A DNA stretch of 64,000 nt from an uncultured Chloroflexia bacterium (GCA_963810095.1 CAWEMM010000006.1:32001-96000); one strand, 5' to 3'; counted from the first letter of the stretch, positions 37,280 to 57,952 are shown. A program made the numbers and translations. The notes: generated by a model from the sequence alone, not told the origin.

Positions 37280-39689
37280 ATGGCAGAAACCAGACAAATC
37301 ACCCTCCCACTCACCGGCATGACGTGCGCGAACTGCTCCGCCACCATCGAGCGGAACCTGCGCAAGATGCCCGGGGTTGAGCAGGCATCGGTCAACTACG
37401 CCACCGAAAAGGCCACCGTCGCTTTTGACCCGGGCCAAACGAGCGAGTCGGCGATGACCTCGCTGATTAGCGATCTCGGTTACGGCGTGGCCGCGGGCAA
37501 GCTTGAAATCCCGGTCAGCGGCATGACGTGCGCCAACTGCGCGGCGACCATCGAGCGGAACCTCAAGAAGATGCCGGGCGTGGTCAACGCGAACGTCAAC
37601 TATGCGACCGAGCGCGCGACCGTCGAGTTCATCCCGACCCTGGTCAATTACAGCGACATCAAGCGGAAGATCGTCGACGTGGGGTACGGCGTCATCGAGT
37701 CGAGCGCGGGCAGCCGGCCGGCCGATGTGGAGGCTGAAGCGCGCGATCGTGAGATTGCCCAACAGCGCCGTATGCTGTGGGTGGGCGTTGCACTGACCAT
37801 CCCGATTTTCCTGATCGGCATGGCCAACATGCTGGGCCTGCTCGAGCACATGGGGTGGTCCAACTGGCTCATGTTCTTACTGGCCACGCCCGTGCAGTTT
37901 TATGTTGGCGGCCAATATTACGTCGGCGGGTACAAGGCCCTCAAGAACGGCAGCGCCAACATGGACGTGCTGATCGCGTTGGGCTCGTCGGCCGCGTACT
38001 TCTACAGCGTAGCCGTGCTGCTGTTCCCGATGCAGCTGGGCATGACGGTTTATTTCGAGACCTCCGCGCTGATCATCACCCTCATTAAGGTCGGCAAGTA
38101 CCTCGAAGCCGTGGCCAAGGGCCGGACCAGCGCAGCCATCAAGGCGCTCATGGGGCTGCAGGCCAAAACGGCCCGGGTCGTGCGCGACGGGGTCGAGCAG
38201 GACGTGCCCGTCGAAGACGTGATGCCGGGCGACACGGTGATCGTGCGGCCGGGCGAAAAGCTGCCGGTCGATGGGATCGTCCTGGACGGCCGGTCGTCGG
38301 TCGACGAGTCGATGCTGACCGGCGAAAGCCTGCCCGTGGACAAGCGGCCGGGCAGCGAGGTCATCGGCGCCACCATCAACAAGTCGGGCATGTTGACCAT
38401 CCAGGCGACGAAGGTGGGCGCCGACAGCGCGCTGGCCCAGATCGTCCGCCTGGTGGAAGAGGCCCAGGGGTCGAAGGCTCCGATCCAGGCGCTGGCCGAT
38501 AAGGTGTCGGGCGTGTTCGTGCCCATCGTGATCGCGATTGCGCTGCTGACGTTCCTCGGCTGGTACTTCATTGCGGACGCCGGCTTCACGACGGCCATGA
38601 TCAACATGGTGGCCGTGCTGGTGATCGCGTGCCCCTGCGCACTCGGTCTCGCCACGCCGACCGCCATCATGGTGGGCACAGGCAAGGGCGCGCAGAACGG
38701 CATCCTGTTCCGCAGCTCCGACGCACTCGAACGGGCCGAGAAGCTGCAGGTGGTCGTACTCGACAAGACGGGAACGATCACACAGGGGAAGCCCGCGGTC
38801 ACCGACGTGCTGCCCTACGGCACCGGCGAAGGCGAGCTGCTGCGGCTGGTGGCTTCGGCAGAGCGCGGGTCGGAGCATCCGCTGGGTGAAGCGATCGTGA
38901 ACGCGGCGAATGAGCGCGGCTTGAAGTTGGAGCAGCCGGCCGCATTCGAGGCCATCGCAGGCCACGGCATTCGCCGCGACGCTCGGCGAGCGCACTCTCG
39001 TCGTGGGCACCGCCCGGCTGATGGGGAACGAGGGGATCGGCCTCGGACCGGCCCAGGCAGACGTGGAGTGCCTGCAGGCCGAAGGCAAGACCGCGGTACT
39101 TGCCGCCATCGACGGCAAGATCGCGGGCGTTATCGGCATCGCGGATACGGTCAAGGCCGGCGCCGCAGACGCGATCGGCGGGCTCAAGAAGCAGGGGCTG
39201 AAGGTTGTGATGCTGACCGGCGACAACCAACGGACCGCGGCTGCGATCGCGGGCCAGGTTGGCATCGACGAAGTGCGCGCCGAGGTCCTGCCCGGCGACA
39301 AGGCGAACCAGGTGAAGGCCATCCAGGGCACTGCGAAAACCGTCGTGGCCATGGTCGGCGACGGGATCAACGATGCGCCTGCGCTGGCCCAGGCCGACGT
39401 GGGCATGGCCATCGGCACGGGCACCGACGTAGCGATGGAGACGGCCGGGGTGACGCTGATGAGCGGCGACCTGCACGGGGTGCGCAAGGCGATCGCATTG
39501 AGCCGGGCGGTCATGCGTACAATCAAGCAGAACCTGTTCTGGGCCTTCTTCTACAACGTGATCCTGATCCCCGTGGCTGTCGCGGGGCTGCTGCACAACG
39601 CACCCTGGCTGGCGGCTGCGGCCATGGCGTTTTCGTCGATCTTCGTCGTCTCTAATTCTCTCCGGCTGCGCGGGTTCAAGATGGCGTAG
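37280..39689 (+). CDS. copA: Cu(I)-exporting P1B-type ATPase (frameshift near 38975)
   Basis: Two GMTCANC domains, [49 protein letters not shown]. Confidence 0.95.
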
Positions 39690-39754: not shown

Positions 39755-39813
39755 TGTGACTAAAAACACTTGTGACCTTTGTCATTGACACCTTTGGGCA
39801 CTGATGCTATACT
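39755..39813 (+). promoter_or_regulatory. ccm operon promoter with upstream TGTGA boxes
   Basis: TTGACA(39785)-17 nt-TATACT(39808) with extended TG; TGTGA-N6-TCAtt at 39771-39786. Confidence 0.75.
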
Positions 39814-39856
39814 CCGGCTTGTCAGCCAGAAGGCAATAACATCACGCGGAGGAATG

Positions 39857-40429
39857 ATGGCGGAAAGCTCGACCATCCTAAAGGGCGCTGTAACGACCCA
39901 CAAGGCGAATAGCAAGGTGAAGTTCATCGTAGGCGGCCTGGTCATCGTGGGCCTGATCGCTTATTTGATCATTTCGTCCATTTCCAGCGCAGGCGCCTAC
40001 TATCGCGAGGTGGGCGAGGTGCTGGCGCAGCGTGATGCGCTGGTGGGCAAGAGCCTGCGGGTGAGCGGCAACATCGTCACCGAGAGCGTCACCTACGACG
40101 CGGCCAAGCTGGACCTCAACTTCCTCGTCTCCGATCCGAAGGACCCGACCAAGCAATTGGCGGTCTATTTCCACGGGGTTAAGCCGGACCAGATGACGCG
40201 CGAAGGCTCGAGCGCCATCATCGAAGGGACGCTGAGCACCGGCGGAACGGGCGGCAGCGGCAACAGCGGCGGGGGCGGGAGTAGCAGCAACAGTGGCGGC
40301 GGCAGCGGCAAAGGCGGAATGGTCGCCGGAGCCGGTGCTACGGTCGTCGCGAACAACTTGCTCCTCAAGTGCCCGTCGCGCTACGAAGAACAGGGTATCG
40401 AAGAAATCAAGGTCGAGGCTGTCAAATAG
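39857..40429 (+). CDS. ccmE: Haem chaperone CcmE, CxxxY type
   Basis: N-terminal TM, YY..V.E, RVSG, V.F.G.KPD, I.EG, LLLKCPSRY. Confidence 0.9.
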   Translation: MAESSTILKGAVTTHKANSKVKFIVGGLVIVGLIAYLIISSISSAGAYYREVGEVLAQRDALVGKSLRVSGNIVTESVTYDAAKLDLNFLVSDPKDPTKQLAVYFHGVKPDQMTREGSSAIIEGTLSTGGTGGSGNSGGGGSSSNSGGGSGKGGMVAGAGATVVANNLLLKCPSRYEEQGIEEIKVEAVK

Positions 40430-40578
40430 TCCTCCGCCCATAATCCCTAACGCACATCGTCAGACCTGGCAGGTCTCTAGGGGCCTGTCAGGTCTATTGC
40501 TGTAAATTAGCCGGACCCGCCAGGTTGCTCCGAAAGCCCTCGGGTTCAGACTCGTCTTTCAGAAAGACCCTTCGCTGC

Positions 40579-42375
40579 ATGAAACTGACACGCTTATTCC
40601 TCATCGGCGCGCTCGTCGTCCTGATCGCCCTGCCCGCCGCATCCGCCCTGGCGCAAGAGGCGCCCACCCCTGCCGCACCCGCTGAAAGCGCCGTCACTCC
40701 GCCCGAACCGCTGAGCGGCCAGGCGAACTGGGTTCAGAACTGCGCGCCGTGCCACGGGACGACGGGCAAGGGCGATGGTCCGAGCGCCGCCGGGCTGGGC
40801 CGTACGCCGGCCGCGCTGGGCGACTACAAGGCTATCGCTGCGAAGTCGCTGCAGGAACTCTTCGACGTGACCAAGAACGGACGCATGCAGCAGATGATGC
40901 CACCGTGGAAGAACCAGCTGAGCGACCAGGAGATTTGGAACACGGTCGCGTACGCCTGGAGCCTCCACACGAGCCGCGAGGAAGTGGACCAGGGCAAGAC
41001 GGTTTACGAGGCCAACTGTGCGTCGTGCCACGGTGCAGACGGCAAAGCCGGCACGGGTGGGGCCCCCAACCTCGCCGACTTTGCCAAGACCAGCCAGGTG
41101 AGCCAGGCCCAGTGGGCCGATGCTGTCGCCAAGGGCAAGGGCACGATGCCGGGGTTCGCCGGCAAGCTGAGCGACGCGGACCAGCAGGCCGCACTCACCT
41201 ACGCCCGGCAGCTTTCGCTGGGCGGGCCGCTCTTCCGCGAGGCGCTCACCAAGGGCACCGGCGTCATCAGCGGCACGGTCACCAACAAGACGACGGACAA
41301 ACCCTACGCCGATGCGACCGTCACCCTGGGTATTTTTGACCAGGCCAGCCAGCTCGAACAGCGGACGATCAAAACCGACGCCGACGGCTTCTACAAGTTC
41401 GACCAACTGCCGACGGACAGCACCCTGGCCTATGGCGTGCGAGTCGAGTACCCCGCCGGCGTCCCTTACACCTCCGAGTTCGTTAGCCTCGAGCCGGGCA
41501 AGGCCGAGGCGAACCTTCCCGTCCTGGTGTATGACACGACGACCGACGGAGCGGGCATCCGCGCGGAGCGCGTGCACTACATCGTCGAGTTTGACGCGGG
41601 CCGCGCGCTGATTGCCGAACTGGTCGTGCTGAGCCTCGACGGGGATAAGGCCTACGTGGGCGACGGCAACCACGTCCTGCGCTTTCCGCTGCCCGCGGGA
41701 GCACAAGACCTGAGCGTCAACGAGGGCCAGTTGGGCGAGCGGTTCATCCAGATCGACAACGGGTTTGTCGATCGCCTCGCGCTCACGCCCGGCCAGAACA
41801 GCCGCCAGATCCTGTACCGCTACACGCTGCCCTACCAGGGCACCAGCCTCGACCTCGTGCGCTCGCTGCCCTACCCCGCCACAGCCGTCAACGCGCTCGT
41901 TTCGGACGTGGGCGAGAAGGTCACCAGCCCTGACATGAGCGACGGCGGCCGCCGCGACACGCAGAACGGCGCCTATTTCACCTTCACCCAGCCCGACGTG
42001 GCGGCTAACCAGCAGGTGCGCCTCAGCATGACGGGCCTGCCCGACGCCGCTGCGGCAGCCTCGGGCGCGGCGACAGGCGCAAGCACGACGGCTACGGCTA
42101 CTGGCGTCGGCGGTCTCGACCGGCGCATCCTCATGGGCTTGATTGCCACGGTGGCGGCCATCGCCGCGTTCCTCGTCGCCCTGCCCATCGCACTGCGGCG
42201 GCGCCAGCAGGCGAGCCTGGTGGGCGAGGGTCTGGACCGTGACGAATTGATCGACGCGCTGGCCCGGTTGGACCTCGCGTACGAGGCGGGCGAAATCGGC
42301 GAGTCCAGGTATCGCGACGAGCGGATGCAGCTGAAGGCCCAGTTGCGCGACGCGCTGCGCGCAGATTCAGAGTAG
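40579..42375 (+). CDS. Secreted dihaem c-type cytochrome fused to Ig-like domains, C-terminal TM and CcmI-like tail
   Basis: Signal peptide, CAPCH...MPPW, CASCH...MPGF, ISGTV.N.T...V.L...TD.DG.Y.F, TM, RDELIDALARLDLAYEAGEI...Y. Confidence 0.8.
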   Translation: MKLTRLFLIGALVVLIALPAASALAQEAPTPAAPAESAVTPPEPLSGQANWVQNCAPCHGTTGKGDGPSAAGLGRTPAALGDYKAIAAKSLQELFDVTKNGRMQQMMPPWKNQLSDQEIWNTVAYAWSLHTSREEVDQGKTVYEANCASCHGADGKAGTGGAPNLADFAKTSQVSQAQWADAVAKGKGTMPGFAGKLSDADQQAALTYARQLSLGGPLFREALTKGTGVISGTVTNKTTDKPYADATVTLGIFDQASQLEQRTIKTDADGFYKFDQLPTDSTLAYGVRVEYPAGVPYTSEFVSLEPGKAEANLPVLVYDTTTDGAGIRAERVHYIVEFDAGRALIAELVVLSLDGDKAYVGDGNHVLRFPLPAGAQDLSVNEGQLGERFIQIDNGFVDRLALTPGQNSRQILYRYTLPYQGTSLDLVRSLPYPATAVNALVSDVGEKVTSPDMSDGGRRDTQNGAYFTFTQPDVAANQQVRLSMTGLPDAAAAASGAATGASTTATATGVGGLDRRILMGLIATVAAIAAFLVALPIALRRRQQASLVGEGLDRDELIDALARLDLAYEAGEIGESRYRDERMQLKAQLRDALRADSE

Positions 42376-42480
42376 TTCACCACCAAGACTCGAAGACACA
42401 CAGCGCCACTAAGGACCCCTGGTGAGCCCTCGTGTCTTTGGGCCTTCGTGGTTCACGCAGTGTCACTGTAGGGAACAACC

Positions 42481-43284
42481 TTGGCTGAAGCAGATATCCC
42501 GATGATCGAGGTGCGGAACCTCGTCAAGTCGTTCGGCGCGAAGTACGCGCTCCGCGGGGTGAACCTGCGCGTGATGCCCGGCGAATCGCTCGTCTTGTTC
42601 GGCCCGAATGGCGCGGGGAAGTCGACCTTGGTCCGCATCCTCTCGAGCCTCAGCCGGCCGTCGGGCGGCACGGTGCAGATCGGCGGTTTGGACCTGGCGA
42701 AGCACGCGGATGGCATCCGGCGCTACCTGGGCGTCGTCTCCCATGCCCCCCTGCTCTACGACAGCCTGACGGCCGAAGAAAACCTGAAGTTCTTCGCCGG
42801 GCTGTACGGCATGAACCACCCGGAAGAGCGGATCAAGGCCATGCTGCAGCGGGTGGGCCTGTGGCCGCGGCGCGCCGACCTCGTCCGGACTTTCTCGCGC
42901 GGCATGGTGCAGCGCATGGCCATCGCGTGGGCGCTGCTGCACGACCCTGAGGTCATCCTGCTCGACGAGCCCGACACGGGGCTGGACCCACAGGCGGCCG
43001 AAATGCTGCACGGACTGCTGTCCGAGCTAAGCGGGCGAACGACGATCAGCGCGCTGGGCGGGGGGACCGTGGAGCGGCCGCGCACCATCGTGACCGTGAC
43101 GCACAGCATCGAACGCGGCCTCGCCATTGCCGACAAAGTGGTCATCCTGGCCAACGGCCGGGTCGCCTACGAGTCGACGGTAGCCGGGATGACTGCGGCC
43201 GAATTCCGTCCGATTTACGATCAGGCGTGCCTGGCGCCGCAGGGTGCGGGCAAGAATGGCGCGCGCAGCGGAGGCGGCCAATGA
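42481..43284 (+). CDS. ccmA: Haem exporter ATP-binding protein
   Basis: GPNGAGKS, LYDSLTAEENL, FSRGM, LLDEP; precedes ccmB and ccmC. Confidence 0.88.
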   Translation: MAEADIPMIEVRNLVKSFGAKYALRGVNLRVMPGESLVLFGPNGAGKSTLVRILSSLSRPSGGTVQIGGLDLAKHADGIRRYLGVVSHAPLLYDSLTAEENLKFFAGLYGMNHPEERIKAMLQRVGLWPRRADLVRTFSRGMVQRMAIAWALLHDPEVILLDEPDTGLDPQAAEMLHGLLSELSGRTTISALGGGTVERPRTIVTVTHSIERGLAIADKVVILANGRVAYESTVAGMTAAEFRPIYDQACLAPQGAGKNGARSGGGQ

Positions 43285-43952
43285 ACTTCTGGAAGGCCGT
43301 CGGCGCGATCATCTGGAAGGACATTCGGGCGGAGCTGCGCACGAAGGACATCTTCAGCAGCATGTTCGTGTTCGCGCTGCTGTCGGTGATCGTGTTCAAC
43401 TTTGCGTTCGAGCTGCGCGTGCCCGACATGAAGATGGTGGCGCCCGGAATCGTCTGGGTAGCCATCACGTTTGCCGGGACGCTTGGCCTGAACCGAGCGT
43501 TCGTGATCGAGCAGGACAAGGGGAGCCTGGCGGGGCTGCTGCTGGCGCCGGTGGACCGGGCGGCGATTTACTTCGGCAAGATGTTCGGCAACCTGATCTT
43601 CATCTTTGTCGTCGAGGTCATCCTGCTGCCGCTCATCACGCTCTTTTTCAACATCTCGCTGTTGACGTGGCAGAATATCCTCGTGCTGCTGTTGGGCACG
43701 TACGGGTTTGCAGCGGTGGGCACCGTGTTCTCGGCCATGGCGGTCAACACTCGGGCACGCGAAGTCATGCTGCCCATCCTGCTGTTCCCCGTCCTGCTGC
43801 CGGTCCTGGTGGCCGGGGTCAAGATGACGGGCGCGCTGCTGGACGGCGAGACGCTGAGCAGCGTTGCCAACTGGCTGCAGTTGGTCGCAATTTACGATGT
43901 CGGGTTCACCGTCGTCGCGTACCTGACATTTGGGTTTGTGGTGGAAGAATAG
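43281..43952 (+). CDS. ccmB: Haem exporter permease
   Basis: WKD.RAE.R, FNFAF, APG..W..I.FAG.LGLNR.F..E, RE..LP.LLFP. Confidence 0.92.
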   Translation: MNFWKAVGAIIWKDIRAELRTKDIFSSMFVFALLSVIVFNFAFELRVPDMKMVAPGIVWVAITFAGTLGLNRAFVIEQDKGSLAGLLLAPVDRAAIYFGKMFGNLIFIFVVEVILLPLITLFFNISLLTWQNILVLLLGTYGFAAVGTVFSAMAVNTRAREVMLPILLFPVLLPVLVAGVKMTGALLDGETLSSVANWLQLVAIYDVGFTVVAYLTFGFVVEE

Positions 43953-44058
43953 CGAAACCATTAAGGACCAAAGACACGAAGGCTCACCAAGATTTTCCTG
44001 AAGAACCTTTGTGGAACCCAGGTTGTTCGTGTCTTCGTGGTTAAGGGAAAGGCGGCAT

Positions 44059-44763
44059 ATGGCAACTAACTCACGGGGTTCGACGGCGCTGACCGTCTTT
44101 ACGGTCGTCGTTGCGCTGCTGATCTTGTTCTCGGCATACATGGCCCTGGTGGGCGCACCGCCGGCCGCGGGCCTGACGCAAGACGAAACATTCGCGCAGC
44201 GCATCATCTACTTCCACGTGCCCAGCGCCTGGTTGAGCATGTTGGCGTTCGGCGTCACGATGGTCGCCAGCATTGGCTACCTCATCACGTCGAAGCGGCT
44301 CTGGGACAGCCTGGCCGTTTCCTCGGCCGAAATCGGGCTGGTCTTTACCCTTGCGGCGACTGCCAGCGGCGCGATCTGGGCGAAACCGGCCTGGAACGTG
44401 TGGTGGACCTGGGACCCGCGTCTCACCACCTACACGATCATGTTCCTGCTCTTCGTGGCGTACTTCATGCTGCGGAGCGCGATGGAAGACCAGGCCCGGC
44501 GCGCGCGCTTCTCGGCAGTGTATGGGATCTTTGCGTTCCTCAGCGTGCCCATCACGTTTATGTCGATCCGTTGGTGGCGCACCATTCACCCGGTCCTGAT
44601 CGATCCGAAGTCCGGCTTCGGCCTGGGGCCCGGCATGATGACTGCATTCTTTGTGAGCCTCTTCTCGTTCACGCTGTTGTACGTCGTGCTGCTGCTGCAC
44701 CGCTACCGGCTCGAGCGCACGAAGGAGCAGGTCGAAGAGCTGAAGGAACAGTTCGGGTACTAG
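44059..44763 (+). CDS. ccmC: Haem-handling protein CcmC
   Basis: RIIYFHVP, SAEIG, WAKPAWNVWWTWDPRLT (WWD), RTIHP. Confidence 0.95.
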   Translation: MATNSRGSTALTVFTVVVALLILFSAYMALVGAPPAAGLTQDETFAQRIIYFHVPSAWLSMLAFGVTMVASIGYLITSKRLWDSLAVSSAEIGLVFTLAATASGAIWAKPAWNVWWTWDPRLTTYTIMFLLFVAYFMLRSAMEDQARRARFSAVYGIFAFLSVPITFMSIRWWRTIHPVLIDPKSGFGLGPGMMTAFFVSLFSFTLLYVVLLLHRYRLERTKEQVEELKEQFGY

Positions 44764-44823
44764 ATCACCAGAAACCAGGTTTCCGGTGGAAACCCGTTTT
44801 CTGCAGCCTAAGGAGCAGATACA

Positions 44824-44973
44824 ATGACATTCATGATTGCGGCGTACTTCGTCATCTGGTTGGCTTCGTTCGCCTTTATCCTCAGCATGGTGCGCCGCCA
44901 GAACACCTTGCAGCGCGAGATCACGTCGCTGCGCGAGCTCTCGCAAGAGCACGGTGAGCCGAAGCAGGGCTAA
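44824..44973 (+). CDS. ccmD: CcmD-like small membrane protein (49 aa, not in ORF track)
   Basis: AAGGAG RBS; MTFMIAAYFVIWLASFAFILSMVRRQNTLQREITSLRELSQEHGEPKQG = AY motif, TM, charged tail, right after ccmC. Confidence 0.8.
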   Translation: MTFMIAAYFVIWLASFAFILSMVRRQNTLQREITSLRELSQEHGEPKQG

Positions 44974-45054
44974 CCACAAAGACACCAAGACACCGGGACG
45001 GCAGGCGTTCTGTCGGTTCGTGTCTTCGTGCCCTTGTGTTAAGGAGATTCTCTC

Positions 45055-45957
45055 ATGACCAGGGCTAACCGCTGGCAGACCTTTGCACATGCGCTGGCCT
45101 TCGTGGCCGGCTTCAGTACGGTCTTCGTCATCATGGGCGCCACCCTGGCGACCGTGTTCGGATTCGCGCTGCGCGCGTTCCTGCCGACCTTTGTCAAGAT
45201 CGGCGGCGTGATCCTGATCCTCTTCGGTCTCCAGGTGCTGGGGGTGTTCGGCTGGCTGGCAGACCGGGTGCGGGCGGCGGGTGGCGACAAGAACGGGCTG
45301 GGCCGGCTGTTCGTCGAGGGCGTGGACGCGTTCGGGCGGATCATGTACACGGAGGGCCGGGTTCAGAAGCAGGTGGACCGGCGCTGGGGCTACTTGTCCT
45401 CCTTCGCGATGGGCGTCTTCTTCTCGGCCGGCTGGATCCCCTGCATCGGGCCGGTGCTGAGCGCCATTTACGCCATGGCCGCCATGACGGCAACAGCAGG
45501 GCAGGGTGCGCTCCTCCTGCTGGTCTACTCACTGGGCCTGGGCATCCCGTTTCTGATCACCGGCGCGGCCTTAAGCGTCGTCGCACCCCAGCTCCGGCGC
45601 CTCAACCGGCACATGGGCGTGGTGTCGAAGGTGACGGGCGTCTTCCTGATCCTCGTCGGCATCGCCATGTACATGGACCGCCTGGGGTTCCTGTCGATCT
45701 TCTTCTCACAGCAACTGGGCAACGGCCTGGCGAACGTCGACGTGGGCGGCAATTTCGCCACGGTGACCATGCCGATCGCGTTCCTGGCGGGCTTGCTCTC
45801 GTTCCTTTCCCCGTGCGTGCTCCCGCTGATCCCGGCGTACATCACGTATCTGAGCGGCACGACGGTGGCCGACGGTACGCCGACGGCGCCTGCGGGTCAG
45901 CCGGCGGCCGGCAAGTCGGGCGCCGCGAGCATCCAGACGCCCAAGGCCGGCGCATGA
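45055..45957 (+). CDS. ccdA: Cytochrome c biogenesis CcdA (DsbD-beta family), circularly permuted
   Basis: F..GFS.VF..MG, GWIPCIGPVL (Cys130), YSLGLGIPF, and AFLAGLLSFLSPCVLPLIPAY (Cys254) at the C-terminus. Confidence 0.9.
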   Translation: MTRANRWQTFAHALAFVAGFSTVFVIMGATLATVFGFALRAFLPTFVKIGGVILILFGLQVLGVFGWLADRVRAAGGDKNGLGRLFVEGVDAFGRIMYTEGRVQKQVDRRWGYLSSFAMGVFFSAGWIPCIGPVLSAIYAMAAMTATAGQGALLLLVYSLGLGIPFLITGAALSVVAPQLRRLNRHMGVVSKVTGVFLILVGIAMYMDRLGFLSIFFSQQLGNGLANVDVGGNFATVTMPIAFLAGLLSFLSPCVLPLIPAYITYLSGTTVADGTPTAPAGQPAAGKSGAASIQTPKAGA

Positions 45958-46643
45958 GCGTCGAGGTGAAGCCACCGGAGGGTGATCGCGCCCGGCGGCT
46001 GAGTGACGCCATCAACCGCCTTGCGGTGGGTTTTGCGCGGCACTGGCTGGCGATCTTCAACATCGTCGTGGCGATCTTTATCGCGCTGCCCTTCCTCGCG
46101 CCGGTGCTGATGCGTGCGGGTGCAACGGGTGCGGGGACGTTGATTTACAAGGTTTACGCACCGACGTGTCACCAGCTTCCCGAACGCTCGATCTTCCTCT
46201 TTGGCGCGGACCGGTTCTACAGCGTGAAGCAGCTGGAGAGCGACGGGTATATCCCTGAGGGGCTGAATATCCTCCAGCGTGAACAGCTGCGTTGGGACGG
46301 TTCGGCGCAGGCAGGCTGGAAGGTCGCGGTCTGCGAGCGGGACGTTGCGATCTACGGTGCCATGCTGATCGCGGGCCTGATCTTCGGGCTGCTGCGCCCA
46401 CGGCTGAAGCGGAACGGCAAGATGGCCAAGCTGCCGCTGTGGGTCTACCTGCTCACGCTGCTGCCGATTGCGGTCGATGGTTTCACGCAGTTGTTTGGGC
46501 TGCGCGAGTCGACGCCCGAGCTGCGCTTCCTGACGGGTGCACTGATGGGCGCCGCGACCGTGTTTTTCGCCTATCCCTACGTGGAAGACGCCATGAACGA
46601 CGTCGTCCGGCAGACGCCGACCGGCGGGAGCAGTTCCGGATAG
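45954..46643 (+). CDS. DUF2085-like membrane protein
   Basis: P.LAP, IY..Y...CHQ.PERS, VCERD.AIY, P..VDG.TQL.G.RES...LR..TG; ATGA overlap with ccdA. Confidence 0.8.
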   Translation: MSVEVKPPEGDRARRLSDAINRLAVGFARHWLAIFNIVVAIFIALPFLAPVLMRAGATGAGTLIYKVYAPTCHQLPERSIFLFGADRFYSVKQLESDGYIPEGLNILQREQLRWDGSAQAGWKVAVCERDVAIYGAMLIAGLIFGLLRPRLKRNGKMAKLPLWVYLLTLLPIAVDGFTQLFGLRESTPELRFLTGALMGAATVFFAYPYVEDAMNDVVRQTPTGGSSSG

Positions 46644-53472: not shown

Positions 53473-54372
53473 ATGAATACGGAGCCGATCCTCGAACTGG
53501 ACGGAATCACCAAGGCCTACGGCGAGACGGTCGCCCTGTCAGACTTGTCGCTGACCGTGCGCAAGGGCGAGATCCACGGCGTGCTGGGCGACAATGGCGC
53601 GGGTAAGACCACGCTGCTCAAACTCCTGACGGGCCTGCTGCCCCTTGATTCCTACCAGGGCACGGTTAAGGTCCAGGGTGCGCCCGTCTTGATTCATTCG
53701 CCCAGTGCCGCGATCAAGCTCGGGATTGGGATCGTGCCGCGGCGGCCGGGCATCTTCAGCGGCATGACGATTGCGGACAACATCGTAGTCGGGACGAAAG
53801 AGATGCGCGGCCTGGTGATCAACCAACAGAAGATGCGCGAGGCGGCCATCAAGCACCTGGAGGCGGTTGGGCTGAAGCTGGACCCGGCCGCCAAAGCCAA
53901 CAATCTGACCGCAAGCCAGCAGCGCCTGCTCATGATTGCCCGGGCCATCAGCCTGGAGACCCAGGTCATCGTGTTGGACGAACCCGCGGCCTTTCTCACC
54001 ACGGCGCAAGACCTCAGCCAACTCTTCCGGGCGCTGCGCGGCCTGGCCGAGCGAAACATCGCCGCGCTGTACCTCTCCCGCCGGCCGGCCGAGATCGTGC
54101 AGATCGCCGATCGCATCAGCGTCCTCCGCGACGGGAGCATGGTCGCCGAGTGGCAGCGGGTCGACTTCGACGAGACGACCATGATCAGGCAGATGCAGAG
54201 CGAACGGATCGGCGATGCGGGGTACGTGGACCATGACGACTTGAACCAGTCGAAGGGCTGGATGGATGGAATACAGGAATATCTTCACCGGCAACCGTGG
54301 TTGACGCCAGGTGAAAGCGGGCTCTCGCCACAAAGACTCAAAGCCACCAAGACGCACGAAAGTTCTTTGTGA
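53473..54372 (+). CDS. Orphan single-domain sugar-ABC (MglA/RbsA N-half-like) ATPase
   Basis: I.K.YG...AL, GEIHG.LGDNGAGKTTL, LDEP, IADRISVLRDG. Confidence 0.8.
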   Translation: MNTEPILELDGITKAYGETVALSDLSLTVRKGEIHGVLGDNGAGKTTLLKLLTGLLPLDSYQGTVKVQGAPVLIHSPSAAIKLGIGIVPRRPGIFSGMTIADNIVVGTKEMRGLVINQQKMREAAIKHLEAVGLKLDPAAKANNLTASQQRLLMIARAISLETQVIVLDEPAAFLTTAQDLSQLFRALRGLAERNIAALYLSRRPAEIVQIADRISVLRDGSMVAEWQRVDFDETTMIRQMQSERIGDAGYVDHDDLNQSKGWMDGIQEYLHRQPWLTPGESGLSPQRLKATKTHESSL

Positions 54373-54440
54373 CACTTAGTGTCTTCGTGTCTTGGTGGTT
54401 ACTCGCCGCGGCGTTCTGGAAGCACTGAGGAGTTGAGACG

Positions 54441-57853: not shown

Positions 57854-57952
57854 GTTGAATTTGAATCCTCACCACCAAGACACAAAGACACGAAGGACCA
57901 CAAAGCAATTTATGCAGCTTTGTGACTTCGTGCCTTTGTGGTCAGGACCGGG

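Follow-up and report, generated by a model that had tools for sequence, protein, structure and literature searches.

Can the six helices of CcdA be strung together in a different order and, if so, does the product still do the work of a CcdA? CcdA has been described as a protein of six helices arranged as two inverted repeats, in which TM1 and TM4, the two helices with the cysteines, are proposed to shift in elevator fashion within an O-shaped scaffold; the same paper presents it as the smallest protein with a proposed elevator-type mechanism (PMC7329351). The question is raised by a gene in the window, by which we mean the whole stretch of 64,000 nucleotides analysed, that appears to encode these same parts with TM1 moved from the beginning of the chain to its end. 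We favor the reading, to which we give a probability of about 0.82, that this gene encodes a genuine circular permutant, maintained by selection, of CcdA, the thiol-disulfide electron transporter with six helices, that it serves the System I ccm operon in which it lies and that it has a predicted redox role.

Parts, order and topology of the ccdA product

The gene and its parts are as follows.

45041..45046 (+): Shine-Dalgarno sequence AAGGAG, 8 nt 5' of the ATG (direct sequence reading)
45055..45957 (+): permuted ccdA, 300 codons plus TGA, helix order TM2-3-4-5-6-1 (Pfam, phmmer)
45079..45252 (+): residues 9-66, homologue of canonical TM2-TM3 (5VKV 39-95); AlphaFold2 helices 3-32 and 35-62 (phmmer, AlphaFold2)
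45253..45393 (+): residues 67-113, long K/R-rich cytoplasmic TM3-TM4 loop; predicted helices 64-74 and 81-98 (phmmer, AlphaFold2)
45394..45708 (+): residues 114-218, homologue of canonical TM4-TM6 (5VKV 111-211), with PCIGP inside (phmmer, alignment)
45706..45768 (+): residues 218-238, outside linker in which the old C-terminal tail is followed by the old N-terminal head, 0 K/R (BLAST, K+R count, dN/dS)
45763..45861 (+): residues 237-269, homologue of canonical TM1 (5VKV 3-35), with SPCVLP inside (phmmer, alignment, dN/dS)
45862..45954 (+): residues 270-300, low-complexity cytoplasmic tail, pLDDT 51-64 (sequence, AlphaFold2)

The open reading frame at 45055-45957 (+) is uninterrupted and its product (P0001) is 300 residues long. 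Cys130 is encoded by TGC at 45442-45444, within GWIPCIGP, and Cys254 by TGC at 45814-45816, within AFLAGLLSFLSPCVLPLIPAY; the low-complexity tail opens with a remnant of the old TM1-TM2 loop. Immediately 5' of the gene there is an 81-nt spacer with a hairpin repeat, then a 49-aa CcmD-like ORF, and nothing else. No TM1-type segment lies upstream of ccdA, the whole-genome search for one having matched only the 3' end of the gene itself and a paralogue on contig C8.

When the protein was compared with the PDB by phmmer, it matched 5vkv_A, the CcdA of Thermus thermophilus, with E 5e-24. The match falls into three pieces that are out of sequence relative to the chain: query residues 237-269 match chain residues 3-35 (32 bits for this C-terminal helix), residues 9-66 match 39-95 and residues 114-218 match 111-211. 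Residues 3-211 of 5VKV are covered by these three pieces, and the helices are present in the AlphaFold2 model. Pfam DsbD_TM (PF02683) likewise matched in 3 stretches, with 50.2 bits against a cut-off of 27.1, and DsbD_2 with 32.3 bits against 24.9; NCBIfam holds no dedicated model and gave partial, weak matches far under the respective cut-offs (TsoB 28.8, ArsG 27.4 and DsbD, PRK00293, 19.9 bits). The inverted repeats can also be recognised, since a third BLAST HSP pairs the half on the side of TM4 with that on the side of TM1 (permuted 129-272 with canonical 22-160 at E 1e-9 is one instance). Both cysteine motifs, SPCxxP (Cys254) and PCxGP (Cys130), occur in 121/121 sequences. What the protein does not share with CcdA and DsbD_TM is collinearity, TM1 being last in the chain and both termini being predicted inside. 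The order TM2-3-4-5-6-1 therefore retains all six helices and both catalytic cysteines, and the departure from the family concerns chain connectivity, the set of parts being unchanged. On the evidence of these alignments, the product is confirmed as a circularly permuted CcdA in which the Cys helix TM1 has moved to the chain end.

The topology was read from the distribution of Lys and Arg. The N-tail holds 2 such residues, the TM3-4 loop 9, the TM5-6 loop 4 and the C-tail 2 (total 17), as against 0 in the three predicted outside segments, the linker included; over 56 sequences the means are 14.0 inside and 0.7 outside. This bias places both new termini inside. The end of TM6, in turn, is placed outside because canonical relatives fuse a WCxPC thioredoxin domain after TM6. 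Much of this picture had been anticipated in the initial annotation. Its direct readings, namely a Cys254 motif at the C-terminus after the GWIPCIGP of Cys130, a good AAGGAG ribosome-binding site before the start, a frame open throughout and the lack of an upstream TM1 motif, could all be reproduced. Its identification of the C-terminal helix as TM1 agrees with the 32-bit match to 5VKV, and its claim that the protein begins at canonical TM2 with the pairing of permuted residue 4 with residue 45 of the canonical protein L017. It had also suggested an alignment to the DsbD family (PF02683) and expected hits in swapped order; the swap is evident in the phmmer comparison with 5vkv_A. Finally, it had proposed that old TM6 is joined to old TM1 by an outside linker and that the new termini are cytoplasmic and derive from the former TM1-TM2 loop; the charge distribution likewise puts both termini inside. 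Three features went beyond that annotation, namely the recurrence of the permutation, the existence of a second permuted order and the presence of canonical positional orthologues in the same operon slot.

The AlphaFold2 model, built from the 56-sequence alignment, has a pLDDT of 78.6 and a pTM of 0.71, with a helix break at residues 251-257 around Cys254. VIA-align ranked 5VKV first with Z 7.1, a value that according to the tool helical bundles reach by chance, and an rmsd of 4.5 A (the next Z being 4.8). This superposition takes in 177 residues, model 5-231 on chain 35-224, that is TM2-TM6 in collinear order with both TM1 segments left out. Foldseek against the PDB returned nothing at E <= 0.001; 5VKV again came first (E 0.076, probability 1.00).

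Other features of the gene and its surroundings deserve comment. The TM3-TM4 loop contains an insert of ~45 residues, both helices of which are confidently predicted (pLDDT ~90); it is absent in 5VKV and common to the canonical protein L016 and to CcdA-thioredoxin fusions. One might guess that the cytoplasmic reductant docks there. A related permuted CcdA, L020 (G038:C17, 353 aa), has an extra hydrophobic insert of ~95 residues in the same loop, possibly forming additional membrane helices, and P0131 and P0136 resemble it. Within the window there is also a short palindromic intergenic repeat, with the core AAAGACACCAAGACAC and its inverse, that can form a hairpin and is present in 11 copies at up to 3 mismatches compared to 0.18 expected. 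Copies lie at 44978-45035, near 42384, 43970, 48838 and 53423, and at 54332-54394 and 57876-57937, often as inverted pairs between genes; the repeat resembles a REP-type element or a terminator family.

Conservation of the order and the ccm operon

All of the 120 best homologous clusters (61-93% identity, 89-100% query coverage) have the permuted order; the TM1 motif follows the TM4 motif in 121/121 sequences when the query is included, and a second, N-terminal copy occurs in none. Because the 120 listed homologues share the same order, the swap is not a matter of chance. In genomes of the same family, 24 of 24 are collinear with the permuted query, 20 of them in one full-length match and 4 in consecutive pieces. 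Among 300 further genomes sampled from the phylum, at least 17 had a single match running from TM4 through the join to TM1; this was counted among the 150 matches listed (there are 87 more), taken as they stood, and near the tail some of them contain a stop. For the phylum sample as a whole the tally is 194/301, with G078, G184 and G311 (unpublished) counted in; we base no claim on these three. Closed one-contig genomes with a junction-spanning match and no internal stop include G134, G083, G297, G099 and G050.

These results bear on the possibility that the true gene is a canonical ccdA and that a mis-joined contig or a wrong start gives the swapped order. The genome to which the window belongs is in 16 contigs and is 88.5% complete, and the Logan contigs of other runs span the gene in pieces only. 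A separate 701-nt contig does bridge 44700-45293 with 2 mismatches, from the end of ccmC through the CcmD-like ORF and the spacer to codon 80 of ccdA, and another of 151 nt spans 45745-45895; such contigs lend weak support because the runs may include the sample of origin. Coverage by RNA run X20 is confined to 44700-44820, outside ccdA. Mis-assembly is excluded by the conserved order, which is the same in clusters from several sources and in the same-family genomes, and by the closed genomes; there is, moreover, no TM1-coding sequence upstream. We therefore regard an artefact as hardly credible. The initial annotation had named local mis-assembly, as well as homologues that all carry an extra N-terminal TM1, as grounds for giving up the permutation; neither was encountered (0/120 for the latter), and the search of Chloroflexota genomes for the same order that it proposed was positive.

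Some individual genomes are worth mentioning. The piecewise matches in G002, G008 and G017 may be frameshifts or assembly errors. A fourth, in G010 (G010:C32:12244-12951), stays in a single open frame but passes directly, with no base between, from residue 111 of the query to residue 162; this jump would delete TM4 with Cys130. G313, of the same class, has three separate junction-spanning matches, and permuted CcdA can thus be multi-copy.

The genes around permuted ccdA are those of System I (Ccm), with ccmA, ccmB, ccmC, a ccmD-like ORF and ccmE all present in the neighbourhood.

39779..40429 (+): ccmE (Pfam CcmE)
40525..42375 (+): multi-domain c-type cytochrome gene within the ccm cluster (Pfam)
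42481..43284 (+): ccmA, ABC ATPase (Pfam ABC_tran)
43227..43952 (+): ccmB (Pfam CcmB)
44011..44763 (+): ccmC (Pfam Cytochrom_C_asm)
44824..44973 (+): 49-aa single-TM ORF, CcmD-like by position and size only; no Pfam match, conserved in relatives
45954..46643 (+): DUF2085 membrane protein gene, its ATG overlapping the ccdA stop as ATGA (sequence, Pfam)

The gene next after DUF2085 is rpsT. By tblastn of the window proteins against 26 fetched loci of the class, the synteny ccmE-cytochrome c-ccmA-B-C-(D-like)-ccdA-DUF2085-rpsT was found to be conserved. A canonical-order CcdA sits between ccmC or the ccmD-like ORF and DUF2085 in L016, L017 and L026; L023 also has a canonical CcdA, the fetched stretch covering the DUF2085 side only. 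Permuted CcdA occupies the same slot in L018, L020 and the window's family (L005-L014, L024 and L025), and L019, L021 and L022 have permuted CcdA with ccmC upstream and no DUF2085 match. With canonical or permuted CcdA in one operon slot, the permuted gene is therefore the positional orthologue of canonical ccdA. Among 16 class-level genomes outside the family, the gene is permuted in 5, canonical in 7 and ambiguous in 1 (G029), with 3 giving no match.

With regard to the other genes, DUF2085 is translationally coupled to ccdA via the ATGA overlap. Of the 24 loci from relatives with a CcdA match, 18 have it downstream of ccdA, whether canonical or permuted, a count that holds two duplicate pairs (L011/L025, from one genome, and L013/L014, which are identical). 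Its product may be an unrecognised partner in Anaerolineae cytochrome c maturation. The 616-aa product of 40525-42375 has two cytochrome c domains and a carboxypeptidase-regulatory-like domain and is kept in the relatives' ccm clusters, and a heavy-metal P-type ATPase with an HMA domain is encoded directly upstream of ccmE (37280-39655). A CcmF-like gene is found on contig C11 with a Redoxin-domain gene immediately upstream; beyond CcmC and CcmF the genome has no further PF01578 matches. A further relative, in which a DsbD_2 membrane domain is fused to a cupredoxin-like domain, is encoded at L003 1279-2508 (G000:C7).

The permuted gene is also under purifying selection. Both cysteines and their flanking motifs are invariant in 56/56 aligned permuted sequences. 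In 6 orthologue pairs the gene as a whole had a dN/dS of 0.17-0.40, as against 0.00-0.14 in the relocated TM1 and 0.19-1.26 in the linker, the values for distant pairs being rough because dS is near saturation; the relocated TM1 is thus the most constrained part of the gene and the linker the least. It could be argued that the permuted protein keeps the fold but no longer supplies reductant to Ccm, as a relic or in some other role, and that the job of CcdA falls to the paralogue on contig C8 (L001 1414-2133, G000:C8), a canonical-order DsbD_TM gene in the same genome scoring 114.9 bits. The constraint on the relocated Cys helix and the invariance of both cysteines speak against such a loss, as does the fact that it is the permuted gene that holds the canonical ccdA slot beside ccmA-E. 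The paralogue, by contrast, has no ccm neighbours and adjoins OsmC-like and AhpD-like (CMD) genes, an oxidative-stress context. A lost role is in our judgement quite improbable, and we favor the reading of a permutant that serves its operon; as far as sequences can tell, the rearrangement is conserved and apparently working.

Recurrence and route of origin

An exhaustive search of 50%-identity cluster representatives gave 8504 matches. The best 150 of these were classified as 112 canonical, 28 permuted, 8 without TM1, 1 without TM4 and 1 falsely showing both; since the set was chosen by similarity to a permuted query, the 112/28 ratio does not reflect prevalence. P0124 and P0144, which gave the appearance of a third order (TM456-TM23-TM1), turned out to be N-terminally truncated fragments with only 5-6 bits for TM2-3. 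For phylogenetic analysis the TM1, TM2-3 and TM4-6 blocks were aligned separately and then concatenated (231 columns). On a FastTree phylogeny of 171 rows the permuted label had to change state 18 times, and starred branches force 8 or more of these changes. IQ-TREE (LG+C20+F+G4, quick search) was run on 95 of the 171 rows, those left out being near-duplicates in the window's clade, two fragments, the long-branched L001 and P0243, and rows thinned from large canonical clades; it also gave 18 changes, at least 7 forced by starred branches, with 44/92 branches unsupported. Judged from these trees, the permuted proteins are more than one clade and, the direction of change (gain or reversion) aside, permutation seems to have arisen repeatedly in the CcdA family.

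If there had been only a single ancient origin, the scatter of permuted rows would have to be explained by lateral transfer and reversions or by weak phylogenetic signal. The alignment is indeed short, nearly half of the branches in the smaller tree are unsupported, and the window's own clade (its family with P0122, P0125 and P0127) is a single starred clade of permuted rows (98*). However, constraining the 33 permuted rows together made the likelihood 420.6 log units worse (p-AU 4e-35), and the changes forced by starred branches would still have to be accounted for. Reversion by the same duplication route is mechanistically possible, but reversions would themselves be repeated permutation events, and lateral transfer leaves the gene tree unaltered. 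Furthermore, P0135 is 65% identical to canonical L015 versus 52% to its best permuted row, P0212 is 61% identical to a canonical protein versus 48% to its best permuted row, and the linkers bear the clade-specific tails of those canonical relatives. A single origin is therefore unlikely, and we prefer recurrence. With regard to breadth, one window-type cluster (P0210) is labelled Candidatus Eremiobacteraeota; occurrence beyond Chloroflexota amounts to this single source label because the scan of named genomes gave only 2 loci, both from Anaerolineales MAGs.

A second kind of permutation was encountered in P0156 and P0194, in which the order is TM4-5-6-linker-TM1-2-3 (type B). A search with P0156 found 119 further clusters at 64-80% identity, and the type B order holds in 120/120; several of these clusters are labelled as Dehalococcoidia MAGs, with contigs of up to 591 kb. 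Type B resembles the window's CcdA in having the same TM6-linker-TM1 join, the two Cys motifs and termini in former cytoplasmic loops. It differs in that the cut lies in the TM3-TM4 loop and not in the TM1-TM2 loop, with the consequence that the two three-helix repeats are swapped whole. On balance we think it probable that the CcdA fold is a natural hot spot for permutation, a ring that has been re-cut repeatedly at its cytoplasmic loops from tandem duplicates, with at least seven order changes among the sequences sampled here and cut sites at TM1/TM2 and TM3/TM4. In the window type the tether of Cys helix TM1 switches from the cytoplasmic to the outer side, and in type B Cys helix TM4 becomes a first helix with a free end. 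If this idea is correct, the family would be a natural experiment both on whether it matters, for a mechanism of the proposed elevator type, how the Cys helices are connected, and on the effect of helix order on membrane insertion. In the permuted forms no N-terminal tail has to be translocated.

The junctions retain the old termini, and this makes the route of origin (duplication, fusion, trimming) readable from sequence. In the closest canonical/permuted pairs nothing of the canonical protein is lost; it has been opened at one point and its old ends have been connected: (i) by BLAST, residues 219-262 of P0135 correspond to residues 1-44 of canonical L015 from the first Met (73% identity) and residues 5-197 to residues 46-238, of 240; (ii) in the pairs P0212/P0166, P0210/P0223 and P0214/P0189 the permuted linker consists of the clade-specific C-terminal tail of the relative followed by the N-terminal head; and (iii) in the window protein, residues 4-218 correspond to canonical L017 45-230 and residues 237-281 to 6-50. 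A linker made of the old C-terminal tail and then the old N-terminal head points to tandem duplication and in-frame fusion. Most likely, then, a canonical ccdA in the same slot of its ccm operon would have been tandemly duplicated, the copies would have fused in frame such that old TM6 ran through a linker into old TM1, and the outer parts of the fusion would have been lost to leave TM2-3-4-5-6-1. Among the 296 classified proteins there is no intermediate of a duplication, be it one with a TM1 at either end or a fusion of 12 helices. P0228 (491 aa) was considered as such an intermediate but proved to be a CcdA of canonical order followed by a WCGPC thioredoxin domain at the C-terminus, its second 'TM1' being an alignment overrun; residues 45-50 of L017, from the old TM1-TM2 loop, align to both ends of P0001 but are too short to be a duplication signature.

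Predicted function and comparison with known systems

We propose the following working model. The chain runs TM2-TM3-long cytoplasmic loop-TM4-TM5-TM6-outside linker-TM1, with both termini predicted to be cytoplasmic; the partner to which TM1 is tied is no longer TM2, at the inner face, but TM6, at the outer face. Permuted CcdA most likely takes electrons from cytoplasmic thioredoxin and is predicted to pass them via the Cys130-Cys254 pair to an extracytoplasmic thioredoxin-like protein, which would keep the CXXCH cysteines of apocytochromes reduced for haem attachment. We infer the redox role and its partners, as well as a TM1 packed against TM4 and an origin through duplication.

A search of the full-text literature, with subscription journals mostly outside it, found no description of a permuted CcdA or DsbD and, to our knowledge, there are few documented cases of natural circular permutation among polytopic helical membrane proteins. 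The paper that describes the CcdA helices and the elevator proposal (PMC7329351) cites Zhou and Bushweller (2018). Current annotation names all of the permuted proteins simply CcdA. Family HMMs score them low and in pieces, and topology predictions and structure-based transfers will consequently be wrong unless the permutation is recognised. In the present case the permutation is conserved and selected, the pathway to which the gene belongs is defined, and the canonical same-slot orthologues of sister lineages allow direct comparison. A re-tethered TM1, or swapped repeats, bears directly on the elevator model of CcdA.

How, then, does the protein compare with its known relatives? The DsbD beta domain and ScsB belong to the same superfamily and use the same two-cysteine relay, but have two further helices, periplasmic alpha and gamma domains and the canonical helix order. 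The CcdA-thioredoxin fusions P0145, P0170, P0179, P0186 and P0228 have the same long TM3-TM4 loop and match query residues 3-218 in one stretch; their order is canonical, and where the permuted protein has TM1 they have an extracytoplasmic WCxPC domain after TM6. The canonical proteins L016, L017, L023 and L026, from other Anaerolineae families, are 42-43% identical to the window protein over TM2-TM6 (tblastn). In the concatenated three-block alignment no canonical row comes closer than L017, with 49% identity, and L016 shares the long TM3-TM4 loop. These slot orthologues have an N-terminal TM1 and a short tail after TM6, such as ...FFNFGIQ in L017.

With canonical CcdA itself (5VKV, PF02683) the window protein has in common six homologous helices, SPCxxP in TM1 and PCxGP in TM4, two inverted three-helix repeats and a gene tied to cytochrome c maturation genes. 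Its model superposes on 5VKV over TM2-TM6. It differs from 5VKV in running TM2-3-4-5-6-1 instead of 1-6 and in its structured TM3-TM4 insert. Canonical termini are outside, whereas those of the window protein are predicted inside; its TM1, tied to TM6 by the outside linker, has a free cytoplasmic end. TM1 is still a terminal helix with one free end, but it is now held by the outside linker, where canonical TM1 is held by a cytoplasmic loop.
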